Shown piece by piece: positions 854 through 54,067 of a stretch of 64,000 bases of DNA. The notes beneath the pieces were generated by a model. It did not search any database. It was not told the origin of the DNA and was given only the letters and a program-made list of their open reading frames with translations. Positions within the stretch are counted from its first letter, which is position 1, and every line of letters begins with the position of its first letter. The position numbers and the translations under genes are program-made. The stretch lies in contig CAWFCE010000002.1 in NCBI GenBank assembly GCA_963814275.1, positions 554,537 to 618,536 of the forward strand, in the 5' to 3' direction. Source of the stretch: Candidatus Parcubacteria bacterium (GTDB lineage Bacteria; Patescibacteriota; Patescibacteriia; Patescibacteriales; UBA12075).

Positions 854-3800
854 ATGCTTAATCCAATAAAAACAACGGATTTTGACGCTATTAAACTGAA
901 GCTAGCGTCGCCCGACAATATTAGCTCCTGGTCGCATGGCGAGGTTACCCGGCCGGAAACCATTAATTACCGGACGCAAAAACCGGAGAAAGAAGGCCTT
1001 TTTTGCGAGCGCATATTCGGTCCTTCCAAGGACTGGGAATGTTATTGCGGAAAATATAAGAAGATCCGTTATAAGGGCATTGTCTGCGACAAATGCGGCG
1101 TTGAGGTTACGCGGTCGATCGTCCGCCGTGAACGGATGGGCCACATCCGGCTGGAATCACCCTGCACGCATATTTGGTTTTTACGCGGTTTGTCTTCCAA
1201 GGTCGGTCTGATCCTCGACCTCTCGATGCAGGCGCTGGAGAAAGTGGTGTATTTCGCCAGTTTTATCATTACTGATGTAAATGAAGATCTTAAGCAAGCC
1301 ACGATCGACCAGATCAAAAATGAGTATAAACAAAAAAAGAAATCTATCGATAATGATTTTTTGCGCCAAACGAACGAAATCAAGAACCGTAAGGGAAAAT
1401 TGATCGAGCAGGGCAAAAGCCGGCCCGAGGCGGACGATGAAATCAATGGTGAAATCGAATCTCTGGCGAAGGTCAAGGAAGAGAAGCTGGCCAATCTGCA
1501 GAATGCTTTCGACCAGGCTCAAAAAGAATTGAAAGACTTGAAGCCTCTCTTGATCATATCGGAAAATACTTATCAAAATTTAAGCTTGAAATACGGCCAT
1601 ATATTCGAGGCCGGTATTGGCGCGGAAGCGGTGCGGAAGCTTCTGGAAAGGATCGATTTGGGAAAGTCCATTGAATTGCTTGAGCAGGAACTTCTGCAAG
1701 CGATCGATTCGAAACGGGACAAGCTCACGAGGCGCCTTAAACTGTTCAAAAGCTTGCTGGCGAATAACTTGCGCCCGGAATGGATGATTTTGACCGTGGT
1801 GCCGGTAATTCCGCCGGATCTGCGCCCGATGGTCGCCCTTGACGGGGGGCGTTTTGCCACCTCCGACCTCAATGATCTGTACCGTCGCGTGATCAATCGC
1901 AATAACCGTTTGCGGCAGCTGGTAGATCTGAACGCGCCCGAGGTCATATGCCGCAACGAAAAACGCATGCTGCAGGAAGCGGTTGATGCCCTGATTGATA
2001 ATTCCGCCCGGCACGGCAAAACCGTAATCGCGTCTACCGGGCAGAAGCGCATGCTTAAATCGTTGGCCGACTCGCTTAAAGGCAAGCAGGGCCGTTTTCG
2101 CCAGAATTTATTGGGCAAACGCATTGATTATTCCGGCCGTAGTGTCATCGTGGTTAACCCCAAGCTGAACCTTGACCAGTGCGGTCTGCCGAAAGTGATG
2201 GCCTTGGAACTGTTCAAGCCCTTTATTATCAGCAAATTAATAGATAAAGAAGTCGTGCATAATGTCCGCAGCGCATCCCGGTTTATCGAATCCGGAGCTG
2301 ACGTGGTATGGGATATACTGGAAGAGATCATCCAGGGCGCCTATGTTCTCCTGAACCGCGCGCCAACGCTCCATCGGCTCGGCATACAGGCTTTTAGGCC
2401 GATCCTGATAGAGGGCAAGGCAATCCAGATCCATCCGCTGGTTTGTACCGCTTTTAACGCTGACTTTGACGGCGACCAGATGGCGGTTCATGTCCCCTTA
2501 ACGGCGGAAGCGGTGTCAGAGGCGCGGGATATTATGTTGTCTTCCCGCAACCTCTTAAAACCGGCTACCGGGGATCCGGTAGTAGCGCCAAACCAGGATA
2601 TCGTCTGGGGCGCTTTCTATATCACCAATATGGCTGAGGGCAGCAAGAAAGACGAGGAATTAAAAAGCTTCGCCGATGAAAACGAGGCTCGTTTGGCGTA
2701 TGATACCGAGAATATCAAGCTTCATGATGCAATACGAGTCGTTTTGCCCGGACTGGGATTGGTCCGGACATCGGTTGGGCGCATTATTTTCAACAATATC
2801 TTGCCGAACAAACTGCGCTACGTGAATGAAGTTGTCGGCAAGAGCAAGCTGAAGAACCTGGTTAAGCAATGTTTTCAATATTACGGGCCGGAACGCACCG
2901 TACATTTCCTTGATGACCTGAAAGCCCGTAGTTTCGCCTATATAACCCGAAGCGGATTATCCTGGGGAATGGGCGATCTGCCGTCATTTCCCGAAAAAGA
3001 TGAAATGATCGACAATGCGCAGACGGAAGTCGAAAACATACAAGAACAATATGAGGAAGGCTTATTGACCGATAGCGAGCGTTATACCAAGGTCATCGAA
3101 GTCTGGAGCGGCGTAAAAGAGCGGGTAACAGACATATGCCGGAAAGGACTGCCCGTGGAAGGCCCGGTTTATTCGATGATCGAATCCGGCGCCCGCGGCA
3201 GCTGGGCCCAGCTGACCCAGATATTGGGAATGAAGGGTTTGGTTACATCTCCTTCCGGTGATATTATCGAGCTGCCGGTAAAAGGAAATTTCAAAAAAGG
3301 TTTCGGAGTGTTGGAATATTTCATTTCCACCCATGGCGTGAGAAAAGGGCTATCCGATACCGCTCTCCGTACCGCCAACGCCGGATACCTGACGCGCCGT
3401 TTGGTGGATGTGTCGCAGGACGTAATCATCAGCGATGAAGATTGCGGTGATGATGAAGGACTGCTTGCTACCAGCGCAGAAAGCCAGCAATCTGGAGTTG
3501 ATTTGCTTTCCCGTATAATCGGGCGTTATTTGGCGCAGGATCTGCTCAATAGCAAGGGCAAAGTGTTGGCCAAAAAGGGAGAGATCGTCGATATGGATTT
3601 GGCCGAGAAGCTGGAAGGCGAAGATATCACGGAAGCAAGGATACGCAGCGTATTGTCATGCAAACTGCATCGGGGAGTGTGCGTTAAGTGCTACGGCTGG
3701 GATCTGGGCCATAATCGGTCGGTTAAATTGGGTACCGCCGTAGGCATTATCGCCGCCCAATCGATCGGTGAGCCGGGAACGCAGCTTACCATGAGGACGT

Positions 3801-48185: not shown

Positions 48186-50282
48186 TTAATCCTGTAAAAG
48201 GATTTTTTTGCTTTTCAGCTGGTTTTGGACAAGCGGATGTTTTTCCAGGTCTTTGTCTTTTTTCAATAGCTTCTCCGCTTCATCGCGGGCCGTTTTCATC
48301 AGCTCATAGTCAAATAAGGTCGCCACCTTGAGCTCGGGAAAGCCTTTCTGAGCCGTGCCGTATACCTCGCCCGGGCCGCGCAACTCCAGGTCGATCTTGG
48401 CCAGTTCGAAACCGCTGTGGTGTTGGGATAGCGCTTCGAGGCGCTGTATGGTCACGGGTGAATCGCTGTCGGTAAAAAGGAAACAATAGGATTGATGGGC
48501 GCCGCGGCCGACACGGCCGCGGAATTGGTGGAGCTGGGCCAGGCCGAAGCGATCGGCCCCTTCGATCATCATAATGGTGGCATTGGGTACATCCACGCCG
48601 ACTTCGACCACCGAAGTTGATACTAAAATGCTGATCTTGTTATCCAGGAAATCCTGCATGACCCTTTCTTTCTCCTTTGGTTTTAATCGTCCATGGAGGA
48701 AGCCGATCGGCAGGTCGGGAAATATCGTTTCATCCAGTTTTTTATACTCTTCTTTTACGGATTTTACCCCAGTCTTGTCGGAGATATCGATCAGGGGGCA
48801 AATAACGAATACTTGCCGGCCGTGCCCGATCTCTTTGCGGATGAAGCGGTAACCATCCACTCTCTTATGTTCGGGTACGATATGGGTACTTATCGGTTTT
48901 CGACCAGCCGGCATTTCGTCGATAATCGACAATTTGAGGTCGCCGTATAGTGCCAAAGCCAGTGAGCGGGGAATGGGGGTAGCGGTCATAGTAAGAAGAT
49001 GCGGGATCGGCAGTTCTTTGTTGGCCGCTTTTTTATTATCCGATAATAAGTTAGATTTAGCCATCAAGGCCAGTCTTTGTTCGACGCCGAAGCGGTGCTG
49101 CTCATCGATTATTGCCAGAGCCAAATTGGTGAATTCGATTTTTTCCTGGATGAGCGCATGAGTACCGATGACAATTGGCGAATGGCGAATGACGAATGAC
49201 GAATTCATTTTTTCATTATTCGGATTATTGCTAATGGCGATTTTGCTCCGGGTAACCAAACCGATAGTTAAGCCGAAAGACTTTAAAAGCTTAAGTATGT
49301 TTTCATAATGCTGGTAAGCGAGGATTTCCGTCGGGACCATTAAAGCGGCCTGGTAGCCATTCAAGGCCGTATTGAGCATCGCCATGACCGCAACCACGGT
49401 TTTGCCGCTGCCGACATCACCTTCCAAAAGGCGGGACATGGGGCGATCATTTTGCATGTTTGTTATAATCTCCCAGGCCGCCTTTTTTTGTGCTAATGTC
49501 AAAGTAAATGATAAGTTTTTTACAAAAGCTTTAATTTCATTTTCTCTGAATTTTATTTTCGGCGAAGGGCTGGATTCGAGTTTTTGCCTGGCCAATATGG
49601 TTTGTATTTGGACAAGAAAAAGCTCCTCGAAACCCAGGCGCTTGCGGGCATTATCGATATCGGAGAAGCTGGACGGAAAATGTATCTTTTCTATCGCCCG
49701 CGGCAGGGAAAATAACTTTTGCCGCTTGACGATTTCCGGCGGAAGCCAATCTTCCAGCTGGCCGGCCATCGGCAAAATTTGTTTGACGAGAAAACGGATT
49801 TGTTTCTGGGTAAGATTTGACGTGAGATGATAGATCGGCACCAAACCGCTGGTATGGGTGGTTTGTCCGGAAATTATTTTTTCGTAAACAGGGGATTTGA
49901 GGACTATCGTATTGAAGTTGTCTTCCTCGACTTTCCCGGCCAGCGATACCCGGTCGCCGACATTCAGGTTTTTTGCGATAAAGGGCTGATTGAACCAGAT
50001 GACCTTTGCCTGATCGGTCGTGTCGCTAACGATGGCTTCGGTTATATAGAAACGCTTTCGGTGGCTGCGTTTGTTGCTTATCAGTTCGATTTGCCCGACG
50101 ATATTGGCGCTCGTATTAGGTTGTAAATCTTTTATCGCCGTGATCTTGCGGTAATCTTCATAACGAAAAGGGAAAAAAAACATCAAGTCGCGAACAGTGT
50201 TTATTCCCATTCGCTCCAAACGCGCGGCCGTAGCCTTGCCAACGCTGTACAATTTATCGATTGTGGTATCCAATGTAACCAT
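48186..50282 (-). CDS. recG: ATP-dependent DNA helicase RecG
   Basis: Helicase motifs GDVGSGKT, DEQHRFG and TATPIPR, plus an N-terminal wedge domain. The ORF is open to 50354, but a tRNA terminator occupies 50301-50326. The likely start is MVTLDTTIDKLYSVG at 50282 (alternatives 50288 and 50300). Confidence 0.93.
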   Translation of the reverse strand: MVTLDTTIDKLYSVGKATAARLERMGINTVRDLMFFFPFRYEDYRKITAIKDLQPNTSANIVGQIELISNKRSHRKRFYITEAIVSDTTDQAKVIWFNQPFIAKNLNVGDRVSLAGKVEEDNFNTIVLKSPVYEKIISGQTTHTSGLVPIYHLTSNLTQKQIRFLVKQILPMAGQLEDWLPPEIVKRQKLFSLPRAIEKIHFPSSFSDIDNARKRLGFEELFLVQIQTILARQKLESSPSPKIKFRENEIKAFVKNLSFTLTLAQKKAAWEIITNMQNDRPMSRLLEGDVGSGKTVVAVMAMLNTALNGYQAALMVPTEILAYQHYENILKLLKSFGLTIGLVTRSKIAISNNPNNEKMNSSFVIRHSPIVIGTHALIQEKIEFTNLALAIIDEQHRFGVEQRLALMAKSNLLSDNKKAANKELPIPHLLTMTATPIPRSLALALYGDLKLSIIDEMPAGRKPISTHIVPEHKRVDGYRFIRKEIGHGRQVFVICPLIDISDKTGVKSVKEEYKKLDETIFPDLPIGFLHGRLKPKEKERVMQDFLDNKISILVSTSVVEVGVDVPNATIMMIEGADRFGLAQLHQFRGRVGRGAHQSYCFLFTDSDSPVTIQRLEALSQHHSGFELAKIDLELRGPGEVYGTAQKGFPELKVATLFDYELMKTARDEAEKLLKKDKDLEKHPLVQNQLKSKKILLQD
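49177..49204. repeat. Heptamer tract inside the recG ORF
   Basis: GGCGAAT GGCGAAT GACGAAT GACGAAT. It encodes (minus strand) ...SSFVIRHSPI... in the variable segment before the conserved IVIGTHAL motif. Confidence 0.85.
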
Positions 50283-50300
50283 AAACATATTGTACCACAT

Positions 50301-50326
50301 AAAAAACCCGGCTGTCAGCAGCCGGG
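50301..50326 (-). terminator. Rho-independent terminator after the tRNA cluster
   Basis: Minus strand: CCCGGCTG-CTGA-CAGCCGGG followed by TTTTTT. Confidence 0.8.
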
Positions 50327-50375
50327 AATATTGCGCCGTCTTCCGTAAATGCAAGTAAACTCAGTAAATAGGACG

Positions 50376-50462
50376 CGGTGGGGGTGAGATTCGAACTCAC
50401 GGTTCCCGTTAAGGAACAGCGGTTTTCAAGACCGCCCGATTAAACCGCTCTCGCACCCCACC
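50376..50462 (-). tRNA. tRNA-Ser (anticodon UGA)
   Basis: Manual fold: acceptor GGTGGGG/CCCCACC, anticodon stem GCGGT/ACCGC with loop CU-UGA-AA. Long variable arm and T-arm GTGAG-TTCGAAT-CTCAC. No encoded CCA. Confidence 0.9.
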
Positions 50463-50489
50463 CTGTTTAATTTTTGATTTTCGATTTTG

Positions 50490-50576
50490 CGGAGAGGGAG
50501 GGATTCGAACCCTCGGTACCCGTTAAGATACAACACCTTAGCAGGGTGCCCCTTTCAGCCACTCAGGCACCTCTCC
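50490..50576 (-). tRNA. tRNA-Ser (anticodon GCU), intact copy
   Basis: Manual fold: acceptor GGAGAGG/CCTCTCC, anticodon stem GCACC/GGTGT with loop CU-GCU-AA. Long variable arm GTATC..GGTAC and T-arm GAGGG-TTCGAAT-CCCTC. Confidence 0.9.
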
Positions 50577-50583
50577 CCGGATA

Positions 50584-50841
50584 TTATTCAATTGTATTTA
50601 AAAAATCTTTGATTTGTTGTTTTAAAAAATATCTCCCTTCGGTCGTTTTTAAATATTTTTCTCTTCTTTCAGCGTCACTTTTTAATACGTAGCATTCATA
50701 ATGGATCAATTTCAATGGTCTTTTGTGTCTCGTAGATTTTACTTTTCCATTTTTATGTTCCGCTATTCTTATCTTCAAATCGTGCGCACTGCCTTTGTAT
50801 AATTTTTTATCTTTTAATAATAAAATGTACACATAATACAT
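50584..50841 (-). CDS. Small GIY-YIG nuclease family protein (copy 1)
   Basis: MYYVYILLLKDKKLYKGSAHDLKIRIAEHKNG...KLIHYECY...AERREKYLK has GIY...YIG-type N-terminal motifs (YVYIL / LYKGS), a conserved Arg and a Glu. The track ORF extends to a GTG at 50859. The stop lies 8 nt upstream of the tRNA 5' end. Confidence 0.85.
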   Translation of the reverse strand: MYYVYILLLKDKKLYKGSAHDLKIRIAEHKNGKVKSTRHKRPLKLIHYECYVLKSDAERREKYLKTTEGRYFLKQQIKDFLNTIE

Positions 50842-50861
50842 AAGATTATTATTTCTCACAC

Positions 50862-50978
50862 GGGATTCGCCCAGTCATCCGACTGGGCGCCGGGTCGGAT
50901 GACCCGGCGAACCCTCGGTACCCGTTAAGATACAACACCTTAGCAGGGTGCCCCTTTCAGCCACTCAGGCACCTCTCC
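50862..50978 (-). pseudogene. Truncated tRNA-Ser(GCU) copy: nt 1-~57 intact, T-loop split by a 40-nt insert, 3' acceptor strand missing
   Basis: 50910-50978 is identical to 50508-50576. GGGATTCG (50862-50869) matches the T-arm, but what follows on the minus strand is GTGTGAG rather than TCCCTCTCCG. Confidence 0.85.
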
Positions 50979-50985
50979 CCGGATA

Positions 50986-51243
50986 TTATTCAATTGTATT
51001 TAAAAAATCTTTGATTTGTTGTTTTAAAAAATATCTCCCTTCGGTCGTTTTTAAATATTTTTCTCTTCTTTCAGCGTCACTTTTTAATACGTAGCATTCA
51101 TAATGGATCAATTTCAATGGTCTTTTGTGTCTCGTAGATTTTACTTTTCCATTTTTATGTTCCGCTATTCTTATCTTCAAATCGTGCGCACTGCCTTTGT
51201 ATAATTTTTTATCTTTTAATAATAAAATGTACACATAATACAT
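50986..51243 (-). CDS. Small GIY-YIG nuclease family protein (copy 2, identical)
   Basis: Same translation as copy 1, 402 bp offset. Confidence 0.85.
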   Translation of the reverse strand: MYYVYILLLKDKKLYKGSAHDLKIRIAEHKNGKVKSTRHKRPLKLIHYECYVLKSDAERREKYLKTTEGRYFLKQQIKDFLNTIE

Positions 51244-51263
51244 AAGATTATTATTTCTCACAC

Positions 51264-51380
51264 GGGATTCGCCCAGTCATCCGACTGGGCGCCGGGTCGG
51301 ATGACCCGGCGAACCCTCGGTACCCGTTAAGATACAACACCTTAGCAGGGTGCCCCTTTCAGCCACTCAGGCACCTCTCC
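51264..51380 (-). pseudogene. Truncated tRNA-Ser(GCU) copy carrying the native upstream flank
   Basis: Same structure as 50862-50978. Sequence beyond 51380 (AAAATAAATAAC...) differs from the CCGG-ORF junction of the other copies, so this is the original 5' end of the locus. Confidence 0.85.
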
Positions 51381-51458
51381 AAAATAAATAACTAGCAAAT
51401 AAACTATTTACTAGTTAGCAAAAAAATGCTATAATTACTATACAAAATATAATATCCA

Positions 51459-51971
51459 TTGTCAAACCTTATGGAGGATAAAAAGCCGAAAACCGCATAT
51501 GGCAATATATATGCCCAGTGGCAAGTCGAGGAATTCGACAAGCACGAACGCAGCAAAAATTGGTATATTGCCGCGATTACCGTTGCTTTTGTTCTGATGC
51601 TATTTGCTTTTTTAACCGGAAATTTCTTGTTTGCCGTAATTATAATAATCGCGTCGCTGATCATAATTCTTCATGACGGGCAGACTCCGGACCAAGTGCG
51701 GTTTTTTATAGCGGATGACGGCGTCAATATCGGTAGAAGGTTCTATGAATGGGATGAAATCAAGAATTTTTCCATTGTTTACAAACCGCGCCAAAAAATC
51801 AAAAAGCTTTATTTCGAATTCAAGAGTTTTTTAATTCACCGATTATCCGTAGATTTGCACGACCAGGACCCGGTTTCTATCCGGAAACACCTGGTCCAGT
51901 ATTTGCCGGAAGATACGGAACGCACTGACCTGCCTTTGTCCGAGGTACTTGCCAAAATTTTTAAAATATAG
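51459..51971 (+). CDS. Hypothetical membrane protein (two adjacent TM helices, C-terminal soluble domain)
   Basis: 170 aa with WYIAAITVAFVLMLFAFLTGNFLFAVIIIIASLIIIL. No family recognised. Confidence 0.7.
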   Translation: MSNLMEDKKPKTAYGNIYAQWQVEEFDKHERSKNWYIAAITVAFVLMLFAFLTGNFLFAVIIIIASLIIILHDGQTPDQVRFFIADDGVNIGRRFYEWDEIKNFSIVYKPRQKIKKLYFEFKSFLIHRLSVDLHDQDPVSIRKHLVQYLPEDTERTDLPLSEVLAKIFKI

Positions 51972-52055
51972 TATGTTTCAGAAGGATAAATACCGCATAT
52001 TTGGCGTATTTATCCTGTTTTATTTATAGACTGGGCGTATTTTAAAGCGCTTATA

Positions 52056-52090
52056 ATTCGACATTCGAAAATCGTAAATCGAAAATTCCC
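52056..52090. repeat. Heptamer-periodic tract abutting tRNA-Arg
   Basis: ATTCGAC ATTCGAA AATCGTA AATCGAA AATTCCC, ending 1 nt before the tRNA 5' end. Confidence 0.8.
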
Positions 52091-52091
52091 G

Positions 52092-52163
52092 CACCCGTCG
52101 TTCAACGGATAGGACACAAGATTGCGGATCTTGTAATCTAGGTTCGATTCCTAGCGGGTGCAC
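52092..52163 (+). tRNA. tRNA-Arg (anticodon GCG)
   Basis: Manual fold: acceptor GCACCCG/CGGGTGC, D-stem GTTC/GGAC, anticodon stem CAAGA/TCTTG with loop UU-GCG-GA. T-arm CTAGG-TTCGATT-CCTAG, discriminator A, no encoded CCA. Confidence 0.85.
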
Positions 52164-52177
52164 ATCATAATAAATCC

Positions 52178-52205
52178 CGCCCCGGTTTACCGGGGCGGTT
52201 TTTAT
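52178..52205 (+). terminator. Rho-independent terminator after tRNA-Arg
   Basis: CCGCCCCGG-TTTA-CCGGGGCGG followed by TTTTTAT. Confidence 0.8.
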
Positions 52206-52429
52206 TGTGCATTTGCCGGGCAGAGAATCTAGCTTGACCCAAGGCGACAGGACGAACAAAGAAAAATAATATTAAAATTATTTATTACAAAATAGTCAAA
52301 TTAGCAGCAAATTTATTATTTATTATTAGATAAAATATTTTTGGTAATATTATGGCTTCTCGCGTGTATATATATATGAAGCATTTTTTAATTTATTTTA
52401 TATATCCTTAAAATTTAAAAATGTGAAAA

Positions 52430-54067
52430 ATGCGTATGTTCAGTAAAAAACAATTATTATTAAACGTAATTTTGGTCTTGGCGTCGGTAATAATCACTAC
52501 CGGAGTGGTGGTGGCGGTTCGGGCGGATGAACCCGATACCAACTGCGCGGTCTTGAACCCGTATTATCCGGACGCGGACGGCGATGGCTTCGGCAGCTCG
52601 ACTGCGATCGCGGTAATGGCCTGCAGCGCGCCTGGTGATTTGGTGGACAACAACGATGATTGCGATGATAGTGTCCAGGCAATAAATCCGGACGCGGCAG
52701 AGGTCTGTGATTTGATCGACAATAATTGCGATGGCCAAGTAAATGAAAATTTGGCGACTTCGACTTATTACCGCGACTTTGACAATGACGGCTACGGCGA
52801 TGCTTCCACTACTAATGTTTGGTGTTCTCTCCCCCAGGGATACGTGGTCAATAGCGCTGATTGCGATGATCAGAATGCGCTGGTTAACCCGGCCGCGTTT
52901 GACGGCTGCGGCGGGATCGACAATAATTGCGACGGAGTCGTGGACGATCAGTGTTCAACCAGCACAAAAACATTCTATCGCGACAGCGATAACGATGGTT
53001 ACGGAGATTTGAACCATGCCACCAGTTCCGAGGGCCAGCCGGCCGGTTATGTGTATAACAGCCAGGACTGCGACGACAATAATTCTGCTGTGCATCCGGG
53101 CGCAACTGAAATTTGCAACAGCATTGATGACGATTGCGACGCTAGTACGGATGAAGGACTTAAAAGTTGGTACTATTTTGACGGTGACAGCGATTTGTAC
53201 GGCAATCCGGCCGTGGCCGTCAGCGCTTGCACACAGCCAAGCAATTATGTCGTAAACGACGATGATTGCGATGATAGTCGGGCGGCAATCCACCCGGGAG
53301 CGGCGGAAGGCTGCGGCGGGATTGACAATAATTGTGATGGCGTTACCGATGAAGGTTGCGCGACTTCGACCTGGTACCGCGACAGCGATGGCGACGGTTA
53401 TGGCAATCCGGCGGTTACCAAGATAGCGGAAAGTCGGCCCGAGGGATATGCCGACAATAGCCAAGATTGCAACGATAGCAATGCTTCGATCCATCCCGGT
53501 GCGGCCGAAATCTGCAATAATATTGATGATGATTGCGACGAAAGTGTCGATGAAGGGCTAAAGAGCTGGTATTATTTTGATGCCGATAATGATACCTATG
53601 GGGATCCGAAAAAAGCCACCAGCACATGTTCGCTCCCCGTTGATTATGTATCGAACAATGACGATTGCAAAGATAATAACGCCTCTGTCCATCCTGGCGC
53701 GGCTGAGGTTTGCAATAACATAGACGATGATTGCGACGGTGTCACGGATGAGGGTTGTGCAGCTAACGATAACGATAATGAGGATGGCAATGGCTGCGAT
53801 TGCGAATGCCAGTGCCAGTGCAGCTGCAATTGCGGCTGTAACAACAGTATTTGTCCGTTGTCTGCGTTGCAAAATATTAATCACGGCCAGTTTGTGAGTT
53901 CAATGGCGCACTTATTGAATCAGATGAAAAAAGAGGGAGAAATTGCCGGCAAAATAAAAGGACAGTTGACCAGCCAGGCCGCCAAATTAAAAGATACGAT
54001 CAAGAGCAAGGTTCAGGACAGGATAGAGAATAGGATGGATGACAGGTTCAAAAGCAGGGAAAACTAA
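52430..54067 (+). CDS. Secreted protein with ~8 tandem 'putative metal-binding motif' (MopE-like DCDD...PGA.E.C...D.DCDG..DE) repeats and a poly-Cys patch
   Basis: 545 aa with a signal peptide. Repeats such as DCDDSVQAINPDAAEVCDLIDNNCDGQVNE recur about every 65 aa. Contains CDCECQCQCSCNCGC and a Lys-rich helical tail. Confidence 0.85.
   Translation: MRMFSKKQLLLNVILVLASVIITTGVVVAVRADEPDTNCAVLNPYYPDADGDGFGSSTAIAVMACSAPGDLVDNNDDCDDSVQAINPDAAEVCDLIDNNCDGQVNENLATSTYYRDFDNDGYGDASTTNVWCSLPQGYVVNSADCDDQNALVNPAAFDGCGGIDNNCDGVVDDQCSTSTKTFYRDSDNDGYGDLNHATSSEGQPAGYVYNSQDCDDNNSAVHPGATEICNSIDDDCDASTDEGLKSWYYFDGDSDLYGNPAVAVSACTQPSNYVVNDDDCDDSRAAIHPGAAEGCGGIDNNCDGVTDEGCATSTWYRDSDGDGYGNPAVTKIAESRPEGYADNSQDCNDSNASIHPGAAEICNNIDDDCDESVDEGLKSWYYFDADNDTYGDPKKATSTCSLPVDYVSNNDDCKDNNASVHPGAAEVCNNIDDDCDGVTDEGCAANDNDNEDGNGCDCECQCQCSCNCGCNNSICPLSALQNINHGQFVSSMAHLLNQMKKEGEIAGKIKGQLTSQAAKLKDTIKSKVQDRIENRMDDRFKSREN

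Follow-up and report, generated by a model that had tools for sequence, protein, structure and literature searches.

We analysed a stretch of 64,000 nucleotides (nt) from Candidatus Parcubacteria bacterium (assembly GCA_963814275.1, contig CAWFCE010000002.1, positions 554,537 to 618,536; hereafter the window, with position 1 at its first letter), in which a tRNA-Ser(GCU) locus on the minus strand carries a small repeated element made up of a partial tRNA copy, a pair of hairpins and a gene for a GIY-YIG nuclease. The region 50506-51380 comprises 2.18 tandem copies of a 402-bp unit, namely two complete units of 402 bp and a third copy of the 71-nt tRNA 5' part. Each unit contains, in order, positions 1-71 of tRNA-Ser(GCU), a 40-nt double hairpin, the hexanucleotide AATCCC, a 20-nt leader, an open reading frame (ORF) of 85 amino acids (aa) and a further 7 nt. 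From comparison with related loci we regard it as probable that these are two tandem copies of a small selfish element of an integrase-less homing type, which nests in a tRNA gene without destroying it. The family to which the element belongs occurs mainly in Patescibacteria, within many tRNA species and in two mirror configurations, with abundant derivatives that lack the ORF and with presence or absence at a given site.

The two overlapping stretches 50506-50978 and 50908-51380 are identical at 473/473 nt, and the identity breaks off sharply at both ends, in line with an original prediction, made from the sequence alone, that two perfect 402-bp units lie here. Reading along the minus strand, the first tRNA 5' fragment (51310-51380, 100% identical to 50506-50576) retains a native AT-rich upstream flank and is followed by the first double hairpin (51270-51309; CCGGGTC-ATCC-GACCCGG CG CCCAGTC-GGAT-GACTGGG CG), which stands directly after the ..TTCG of the T-loop. 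The short arm AATCCC (51264-51269), which corresponds to the 3' half of the T-loop and the first bases of the T-stem, and the leader GTGTGAGAAATAATAATCTT precede the ATG of the first ORF (50986-51243, 85 aa and stop). A spacer of 7 nt, TATCCGG (50979-50985), separates this ORF from the next tRNA copy; the original prediction had counted 8 nt. The second unit, delimited by repeat identity, consists of a tRNA 5' fragment (50908-50978), a double hairpin (50868-50907), a short arm AATCCC (50862-50867) and an ORF identical to the first (50584-50841), whose stop lies 7 nt before the sole intact tRNA-Ser(GCU) of the array. This gene (50489-50576) was found by both ARAGORN and Rfam (RF00005, 57.3 bits) at the downstream end, where a complete tRNA had been expected. 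Its first 71 nt form the third copy of the repeat, and its T-loop contains an uninterrupted TTCGAA.

Both upstream fragments correspond to tRNA positions 1-71 and end with ..GGTTCG in the T-loop, and the 40-nt insert, CCGGGTCATCCGACCCGG CG CCCAGTCGGATGACTGGG CG, comes next, so that the proposed interruption of the T-loop by a hairpin is present in both copies. In the displaced resident 5' fragment, the hairpin is located exactly at CG|A of the T-loop. Beyond the insert only 6 nt of tRNA sequence (AATCCC) continue before the sequence diverges (GTGTGAG...). A 71-nt direct repeat of tRNA positions 1-71 therefore bounds the element. The 5' part that it carries continues into the resident 3' part, which restores the gene as an intact tRNA-Ser(GCU) downstream. 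Base composition differs markedly along the unit, with 26.7% GC in the ORF, 63% in the fragment and hairpin, and about 47-48% in the surroundings, in agreement with the AT-rich ORF core described at the outset. No further copy of the hairpin 40-mer was found in the 64 kb, and none of 100 shuffles gave a match.

The genes around the array encode RecG, a DUF5673 protein and a MopE-repeat protein. Neither a tyrosine nor a serine recombinase was found in the 402-bp unit, which has a single ORF, or among the neighbouring genes. The intact tRNA-Ser(GCU) is contiguous, with no ribozyme core or intron family match in an Rfam search of 49500-52500. An intron or another known RNA was rejected as an explanation of the insert because the same search, at E up to 1, returned only tRNAs and sub-threshold noise.

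The product of the ORF matches the GIY-YIG family PF01541 over residues 1-70 (50.3 bits, cut-off 22.6; E = 2.9e-13), which confirms its proposed identity as an 85-aa GIY-YIG protein encoded in two identical copies. The ATG start of the 85-aa ORF was set by the family alignment. Across 33 relatives no change is seen at Y3, Y15, G17, H29, E49, R59, R60 or E61, and conservation at Y5 and R25 is at least 90%. Y15, G17, R25 and H29 line up with Y17, G19, R27 and H31, the catalytic residues of I-TevI. Profile searches matched the solved UPF0213 proteins 1zg2 (E = 6.4e-11) and 1ywl (E = 8.1e-10), and the confidently predicted structure (predicted local distance difference test score, pLDDT, of 91.2) has UPF0213 proteins as its top structural matches, followed by the structure-specific nuclease Slx1, with I-TevI lower. 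The protein is of the single-domain UPF0213/COG2827 type, homologous to BH0048 and EF2693. A word-limited search gave 1,341 relatives at 60-78% identity, and the homologues bear Patescibacteria names. An exhaustive search at E up to 0.001 returned 16,675 cluster representatives, 2,833 of them at E up to 1e-10; an exact look-up of the ORF on contigs gave no match.

Two further observations concern these ORFs. Gene callers place the starts of family ORFs too far upstream, with calls that run across the hairpin and tRNA fragment, as in the 121-aa protein P0003 of locus L001 and many of the cluster representatives; in P0003 the N-terminus '..GAQSDDWANPTRLLM' comes from translation of the hairpin. 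A start-call artefact is the probable explanation for many family proteins 105-140 aa long in which the domain match begins at residue 25-60. In addition, family ORFs in high-GC hosts (loci L020, L032 and L046, in metagenome-assembled genomes (MAGs) of Kiritimatiellae, Verrucomicrobiota and Pontiella) are themselves GC-rich. From its GC content the window copy looks recently acquired, and some other copies look long resident.

We found the same architecture to be widespread. A scan of one genome per species identified at least 569 places that encode a relative, and 80 of these were kept for locus analysis. A tRNA gene on the same strand lies within 60 nt of the ORF in 67/80, just downstream in 54 and just upstream in 15, and the hairpin doublet is at the expected place in 56 of the 80 genome loci. 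The adjoining tRNAs represent about 20 anticodons, including Ser (GCU, GGA, CGA and UGA) and four for Arg, along with Gln, Lys, Asn, Ala, Tyr, Leu, Thr, Gly, Glu, Ile and Pro. The idea of an integrase-less mini-element composed of a nuclease gene, hairpins and a tRNA 5' copy is supported by this recurrence and by the lack of a recombinase near the array in the window, and the suggestion that the same ORF might be found beside other tRNAs is amply borne out. More than 100 metagenome contigs have the same architecture, and the family also occurs in Lentisphaerae, Kiritimatiellae, Cloacimonadota and others. This presence outside Patescibacteria fits a report that Patescibacteria are donors of GIY-YIG genes to other bacteria (PMC12455944). 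A phage origin was rejected, as the family is nearly absent from viral contigs, with a single weak relative among 2.9 million of them.

Each downstream tRNA was compared by alignment with the 400 nt that precede the ORF, and a fragment was accepted at a score of at least 25. A 5' copy of the locus's own tRNA was found upstream in 34/57 ORF-tRNA pairs, 50-75 nt before the start codon, with alignment scores of 25-72; shuffled tRNAs never scored above 13. These 5' copies end in the T-loop (..GGTTCG|A) in 21 cases and in the anticodon loop (..YCG|R, positions 35-37) in 9, and a relative of the window's 40-nt insert is present at every T-loop and anticodon-loop breakpoint. After the insert, the tRNA sequence of the related loci continues for 3-8 nt before an AT-rich leader begins, while in locus L010 the entire 3' end continues to give a complete tRNA with a 40-nt T-loop insert. 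In a separate case (L027 2440-2490, tRNA-Gln CUG), the tRNA copy is broken at position 41 (..GGCG|AGT), where the anticodon stem ends; this break lies outside a loop, and a loop context is therefore not strictly needed.

Besides the form seen in the window there is a mirror form, in which an intact tRNA is followed after 0-10 nt by the ORF, a few T-stem bases with TTCG, the doublet, and AATCC with the tRNA 3' end (loci L006, L018, L019, L020, L022, L032, L041, L044 and L046). In both forms the ORF is co-directional with the tRNA, and the long arm of the hairpin-bearing fragment points away from the ORF. Within L004 the first-form doublet is the exact reverse complement of the mirror-form doublets, which means that the same hairpin faces the long arm in both forms.

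The doublet has the consensus CCNNGTC-ATYC-GACNNGG CG CCNNGTC-GRAT-GACNNGG CG. We picked doublets by two loop patterns and nearness to an ORF only, with pairing disregarded. At least 6/7 pairs were nevertheless present in both stems in 56/58 near-ORF doublets, compared with 2/65 pattern matches elsewhere. Over 57 distinct doublets, pairing in the two-hairpin structure reaches 98.1%, with two-sided changes at all 14 pairs and 145 compensatory cells, a level of covariation that 0/500 shuffles reach. A single long palindrome of 20 bp was rejected as the conserved structure, with 82.6% paired and weak covariation; the window doublet copy can nonetheless fold as DNA into such a long palindrome. The aligned sequences conserve a pair of separate 7-bp stem-loops whose core is fixed. 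The doublet is quasi-palindromic, and the same hairpin pair can consequently form in both DNA strands and in RNA. CG lies on both sides of the insert in 63/69 doublets, and the left flank of the 69 is TTCG in 44, CTCG in 11 and TCCG in 4. We infer that these CG flanks are what a cut at the CG of TTCGAA with a 2-nt stagger would be expected to leave.

The doublet is also common without the ORF. Scanning metagenomes by the doublet core alone gave at least 129 doublets on at least 120 contigs, and flanks were surveyed for 81 doublets with at least 450 nt on each side, among the matches listed, to which the following counts refer. A family ORF is present within 100 nt in 17/81 doublets and missing from 64/81, a ratio of ORF-less to ORF-bearing units of about 4:1. 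An intact tRNA lies within 100 nt of 47/81, and T-loop-half flanks are found in 65/81. The typical ORF-less unit consists of an intact tRNA of almost any identity, 1-50 nt, GGTTCG, the doublet, and AATCC with the 3' end. Such units are also found stacked, for example five of 70 nt after tRNA-Asp (L150) and at least three of 76 nt after tRNA-Ser(GCU) (L004). The fragment fits the acceptor stem of the neighbouring tRNA at 7/7 positions in 35/76 cases and poorly in about 28/76. As a means of telling native from foreign halves this comparison gave a mixed outcome, and it did not settle which half of a rebuilt tRNA is the imported one.

Some hairpins stand outside this pattern. Single hairpins of 18-22 nt with a GTC-loop-GAC core occur in the D-arm and anticodon-stem parts of pseudo-tRNAs (L061 2010-2050 and 2380-2440; L002 about 2400-2420; L058 2410-2470), and hairpin units can thus also insert on their own and elsewhere than at the two main sites. 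A minority of doublets have no tRNA-like flanks (L083 2363-2400, L118 129-166, L096 353-390 and L135 8991-9028), and some of these have longer near-repeats on either side (GGAAAATCGG; GAATTTACG / CGAATTTA). Different GC-rich palindromic inserts abut tRNA-Ser 3' ends or fragments in L202 (about 2440-2510, reverse strand), L011 (about 2855-2950) and L041 (2805-2900). These include GCCTAGC..GCTAGGC, with GTCCCGAC..GTCGGGAC and then CTCCCTCTCCGCA, as well as CTTCGCC..GGCGAAG repeats, and may represent a second hairpin family with the same habit.

The abundance of hairpins without ORFs raises the question of which part of the element moves. One alternative is that the hairpin is the true mobile unit, in the manner of repetitive extragenic palindromes (REPs) and their REPIN doublets or of miniature inverted-repeat transposable elements (MITEs), with the 38-nt doublet inserting at CG with a 2-nt duplication. 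The GIY-YIG protein would then be an enzyme acting in trans or a mere neighbour, and the partial tRNA duplications would be by-products of survivorship, in that the only viable insertions would be those into a tRNA duplicated by chance during break repair. The excess of ORF-less units is what this alternative would lead one to expect, and it also accommodates the doublets and single hairpins in D-arm and anticodon-stem parts of pseudo-tRNAs and in some non-tRNA contexts, usually with CG on both sides, as well as the occurrence of the doublet in both orientations in L004. However, T-loop-half flanks at four in five of the surveyed doublets and a fit of the fragment to the neighbouring tRNA far above chance speak for more than survivorship, the ORF-tRNA junctions are tight and stereotyped, and the constant long arm opposite an ORF-side arm of 3-8 nt is left unexplained. 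We hold free movement of the hairpin to be unlikely, if far from negligible.

Evidence that the whole element is mobile comes from the comparison of syntenic sites, for which the adjoining DUF5673 gene served as the marker of the tRNA-Ser(GCU) locus. At this site L204 and L205 have compact and empty tRNA-Ser(GCU)/Ser(UGA) genes, and in L202 a decayed remnant of the hairpin lies about 60 nt before an intact tRNA. One copy is present in L203, where the tRNA is identical to that of the window over 88 nt, the hairpin differs by 1 nt and the ORF is 72% identical. L004 has one copy together with ORF-less units, and the window has two copies. In L016 Ser(GCU) is empty and a mirror-form copy follows Ser(UGA). 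Empty tRNA-Ser(GCU) sites, which had been named as a check on mobility, accordingly do exist, and the family shows the opposite of a fixed single-copy neighbour with neither tRNA fragments nor insertion polymorphism. A same-species empty site was also sought through close relatives of the window genome, but the best-matching flank protein was just 61% identical, so that the polymorphism is among more distant syntenic relatives.

Tandem arrays are found in other assemblies, with units 71-98.5% identical and periods of 309-391 nt. Their divergence indicates that arrays are a real feature of the family and can be old, and tandem amplification, as originally proposed, is well supported for the family, while the copy number in the window itself rests on the assembly. 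It is conceivable that the window tandem is an assembly artefact, either a single copy that was expanded or two haplotypes that were stitched together: the two units do not differ at any of their 402 bp, and copy number is known from the assembly alone. Nevertheless, the source contig seems to be 1.27 Mb long and is probably a complete genome, and arrays of 2-5 diverged units occur in independent assemblies. An artefact therefore seems quite improbable to us, and it would alter the copy number only and not the nature of the element. The array in the window is either very young or homogenised.

Relationships among the ORFs indicate how often the element changes its host gene. ORFs above about 80% identity share target and configuration, and more distant ones are found in other tRNAs. 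Nearest-neighbour ORFs share a target in 15/36 cases against 5.1 +/- 2.4 expected, which implies that lineages keep to one tRNA and switch occasionally. Strict specialisation of ORF lineages on their targets was not upheld, the specialisation being only partial. Frameshifted copies and decayed remnants are common in the family.

The displaced fragments also carry information about the tRNA genes themselves. Fragment and intact tRNA are two distinct functional alleles in L068, L018, L098, L117 and L151. Where they differ in L068, the changes compensate one another within the anticodon and variable arms, and A7 of the fragment is a better match for the shared 3' strand than is the G7 found in the rebuilt tRNA. 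By one marker gene, the tRNA-Ser(GCU) genes of three occupied genomes are 98-100% identical while their flank proteins are 52-60% identical, and L205, which is empty and is the closest flank relative of L004 (79%), has a tRNA only about 68% identical to that of L004. This discordance suggests that the tRNA allele travels with the element and hints that whole alleles may be replaced horizontally.

The same loci bear on a second alternative, also put forward in the original prediction, in which integration is of the Campbell type with no targeted cut. A circular or incoming DNA of the structure tRNA part, hairpin, tRNA part and ORF would recombine with the resident tRNA, a crossover to the left of the hairpin giving the layout of the window and one to the right giving the mirror form, and the tandem would arise by unequal crossing-over of the 71-nt repeats. 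The two mirror configurations match exactly the pair of products that such crossovers would yield, the ORF running in the direction of the tRNA in every case, and L010 retains a complete hairpin-interrupted tRNA copy. On the other hand, the mirror form would have about 19 nt of homology only, and the differences in L068 span position 7 to nearly the hairpin, which places the exchange point at the hairpin or loop. The constant CG|R breakpoints in two different loops are left unexplained, as is the nuclease, which has no role in this route though its catalytic residues are invariant. Homologous integration of this kind appears improbable.

The closest precedent is the phage protein SegB, with a likeness in target and outcome and not in family membership. 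SegB is a free-standing GIY-YIG homing endonuclease of the T4/T6 tRNA cluster (PMC2330249; PMC13096335). Its 27-bp site includes the TpsiC stem-loop motif of tRNA genes and is cleaved to give 2-nt 3' overhangs (PMC2330249), and its cleavage motif RAWTSGAAC is the complement of GTTCSAWTY, a T-loop sequence (PMC13096335). It is associated with many tRNA isotypes and drives UvsX/UvsY-dependent tandem amplification of a 718-bp unit of tRNA-Tyr and segB, in which the segB 3' end is joined to the tRNA 5' end through microhomology; SegB lacking its 28 C-terminal residues is non-toxic (PMC13096335). The element resembles this system in the location of a GIY-YIG gene among or against tRNA genes, the T-loop motif at the breakpoints, the tandem units of nuclease and tRNA, the many isotypes, and the joining of the ORF 3' end to the tRNA 5' end. 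As with Seg-type genes, some relatives have its nuclease gene at a given locus and others lack it there; unlike Seg-type enzymes, its protein has no DNA-binding domain linked to the catalytic domain. Its protein is of the UPF0213 type, 85 aa in length and chromosomal in Patescibacteria, whereas SegB is phage-borne with a C-terminal extension that matters for activity. Moreover, the element has a hairpin, a stable partial tRNA duplication that rebuilds the gene, and ORF-less derivatives, none of which SegB has.

Nuclease-triggered repair was the other route of entry offered in the original prediction. By analogy with SegB, the nuclease would cut loop-coding DNA at its CG with a 2-nt stagger (TTCG|AA in the T-loop and YCG|R in the anticodon loop). 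The break would be mended by copying an occupied allele, with the long tRNA arm as homology on one side and the hairpin and short arm fixed to the other broken end, that is, the displaced resident fragment. With the tRNA rebuilt from the carried arm, insertion would be tolerated even where tRNAs are single-copy. The rebuilt tRNA keeps TTCGAA and could in consequence be cut again. If a recut tRNA were repaired from a misaligned sister copy, an extra unit would be added, which predicts a 402-bp tandem bounded at position 71 and arrays elsewhere. The hairpin doublet would act in cis, as a binding or recognition structure for the nuclease, as a patch that protects the old junction from being cut, or as both, and ORF-less units of hairpin and fragment might be mobilised in trans. 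New tRNAs might be colonised by a template switch at microhomology in the acceptor 5' strand, giving the tight junction between the ORF stop and tRNA position +1, though this step is a guess.

The ORF would be transcribed from the resident tRNA promoter through the fragment and hairpin, with RNase P freeing the tRNA from the same transcript. A candidate promoter of the whole array (TTGACA-17-TATAGT, 51437-51465, minus strand) with 11/12 consensus matches lies 57 nt upstream of the first fragment and is, by consensus match, the only good promoter-like site on this strand in 50200-51700. The hairpin was rejected as a terminator because no T-run follows it. Given that the promoter-like site lies before the first fragment, that the hairpin has no T-run and that the gap between ORF and tRNA is 7 nt, expression is probably by read-through, and co-transcription with the tRNA is plausible. 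Downstream, an unoccupied tRNA-Ser(UGA) found by ARAGORN and Rfam (50375-50462, minus strand) is transcribed in the same direction, and a terminator-like hairpin with a T-run (50307-50326, minus strand) follows it as a possible end of the transcription unit.

Several points weigh against this reading of a nuclease-driven selfish element. All of the evidence is comparative and comes mostly from MAGs, and the steps of the mechanism are inferred. The protein consists of the catalytic domain and one C-terminal helix and has no DNA-binding module such as SegB and I-TevI possess, which leaves the choice of site without explanation. Although the presumed target is still present in the intact tRNA, most loci have a single copy, so cutting must be rare, regulated or dependent on something else. 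The model gives no one-step route to a new tRNA species with matching arms. About a third of 3' fragments misfit the acceptor stem of the neighbour, for which decay or import of a whole tRNA must be invoked, and about a quarter of the listed hairpin-first doublets have no recognisable intact tRNA or ORF nearby. Finally, the 100% identity of the window units is also what mis-assembly would give.

It is also conceivable that the module is domesticated and benefits its host, nuclease-driven amplification or repair of tRNA genes being useful, for example, against tRNA-targeting toxins. In phage T6, tRNA amplification driven by SegB is adaptive (PMC13096335). The strong conservation of the family protein and the host-like base composition of the ORFs in high-GC hosts (L020 and L032) would also agree with a benefit. 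Against this, the amplified DNA consists mostly of broken tRNA fragments and never of extra intact tRNAs, presence is patchy among close relatives, and decayed remnants and frameshifted copies are common; the window ORF, with 27% GC in a region of roughly 48%, is as expected of a recent arrival. We judge a host function very improbable.

Other systems share single features with the element. Genomic islands and prophages that target tRNA genes are kilobases long, depend on a tyrosine or serine recombinase and as a rule bring along the 3' part of the tRNA. Anticodon-loop and T-loop sublocations of integration in tRNA genes were reportedly distinguished by Williams in 2002. Like such islands, the element sits at the anticodon loop or T-loop, carries a restoring tRNA part and leaves the displaced fragment as a direct repeat; unlike them, it has no recombinase, measures 402 bp, carries a 5' part (window) or a 3' part (mirror form) and has a hairpin at the junction. 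With REPs, REPINs and MITEs it has in common inverted doublets of short GC-rich hairpins, many non-autonomous copies, a protein gene accompanied by hairpins, and covarying stems with a conserved core. REPs are extragenic and dispersed, with a GTAG or CGTC tag (PMC3733652). The element differs from REPs and their RAYT proteins in that its ORF is a GIY-YIG and not an HUH/Y1 (nor a DDE) enzyme, its hairpins lie inside tRNA-derived fragments, and the target gene is regenerated.

Group I introns with homing endonuclease genes have been described in tRNA genes of Patescibacteria, with a preference for the anticodon loop, in a paper that makes no mention of GIY-YIG genes or hairpins (PMC13011429). 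These introns are likewise selfish, nuclease-bearing inserts in tRNA genes of the same phylum, but the element has no ribozyme, its functional tRNA is uninterrupted in the DNA, and integrity is restored by duplication and not by splicing. A literature search, with most subscription journals outside its reach, found no account of an architecture of tRNA, hairpin and GIY-YIG gene, and this architecture is apparently undescribed. The protein itself is like the stand-alone GIY-YIG domains of UPF0213/COG2827 (1zg2, BH0048; 1ywl, EF2693), of about 85-110 aa and with the same fold. We know of no reported link of this family to tRNA genes or hairpins.

The covarying doublet, the mirror form, the ORF-less units, the anticodon-loop target and the SegB precedent go beyond the original prediction. 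With somewhat less than even confidence, we propose a new class in which a nuclease and a polar 38-nt doublet form a cut-and-copy system at loop CG that rebuilds its target, stacks, mobilises ORF-less units in trans and ferries tRNA alleles among Patescibacteria and other phyla. We otherwise place the element as a variant among selfish elements of the homing-endonuclease kind, with a substantial chance that it merits a class of its own. More remote is the possibility that the hairpin and the adjacent tRNA arm, as DNA or RNA, supply the site specificity missing from the tiny protein.

Two other features lie close to the array. A 545-aa protein encoded at 52430-54067 on the plus strand, beside the tRNA cluster, has at least six MopE-type putative metal-binding motifs (PF11617, E = 3.6e-63). 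Right after tRNA-Arg(GCG), at 52166-52209 on the plus strand, there is a strong terminator-like inverted repeat, CCGCCCCGGT..ACCGGGGCGG, with a T-run, which has no relation to the hairpin family.

Patescibacteria have genomes of about 1 Mb and mostly single-copy tRNA genes. Selfish DNA that lives in essential tRNA genes and yet keeps them working would, in these organisms, have found a new route to do so without an integrase or a ribozyme. For annotation, the family means that ORFs are over-extended through the hairpin and fragment, that pseudo-tRNA pieces litter tRNA loci and that tRNA alleles may be horizontally replaced. The very small nuclease and its hairpin pair, with a defined DNA target, are open to biochemistry. 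If our reading is correct, it would give the widespread orphan UPF0213/COG2827 nucleases their first biological context, and the SegB principle of cutting at a T-loop motif with tandem amplification would extend from phages to cellular chromosomes.

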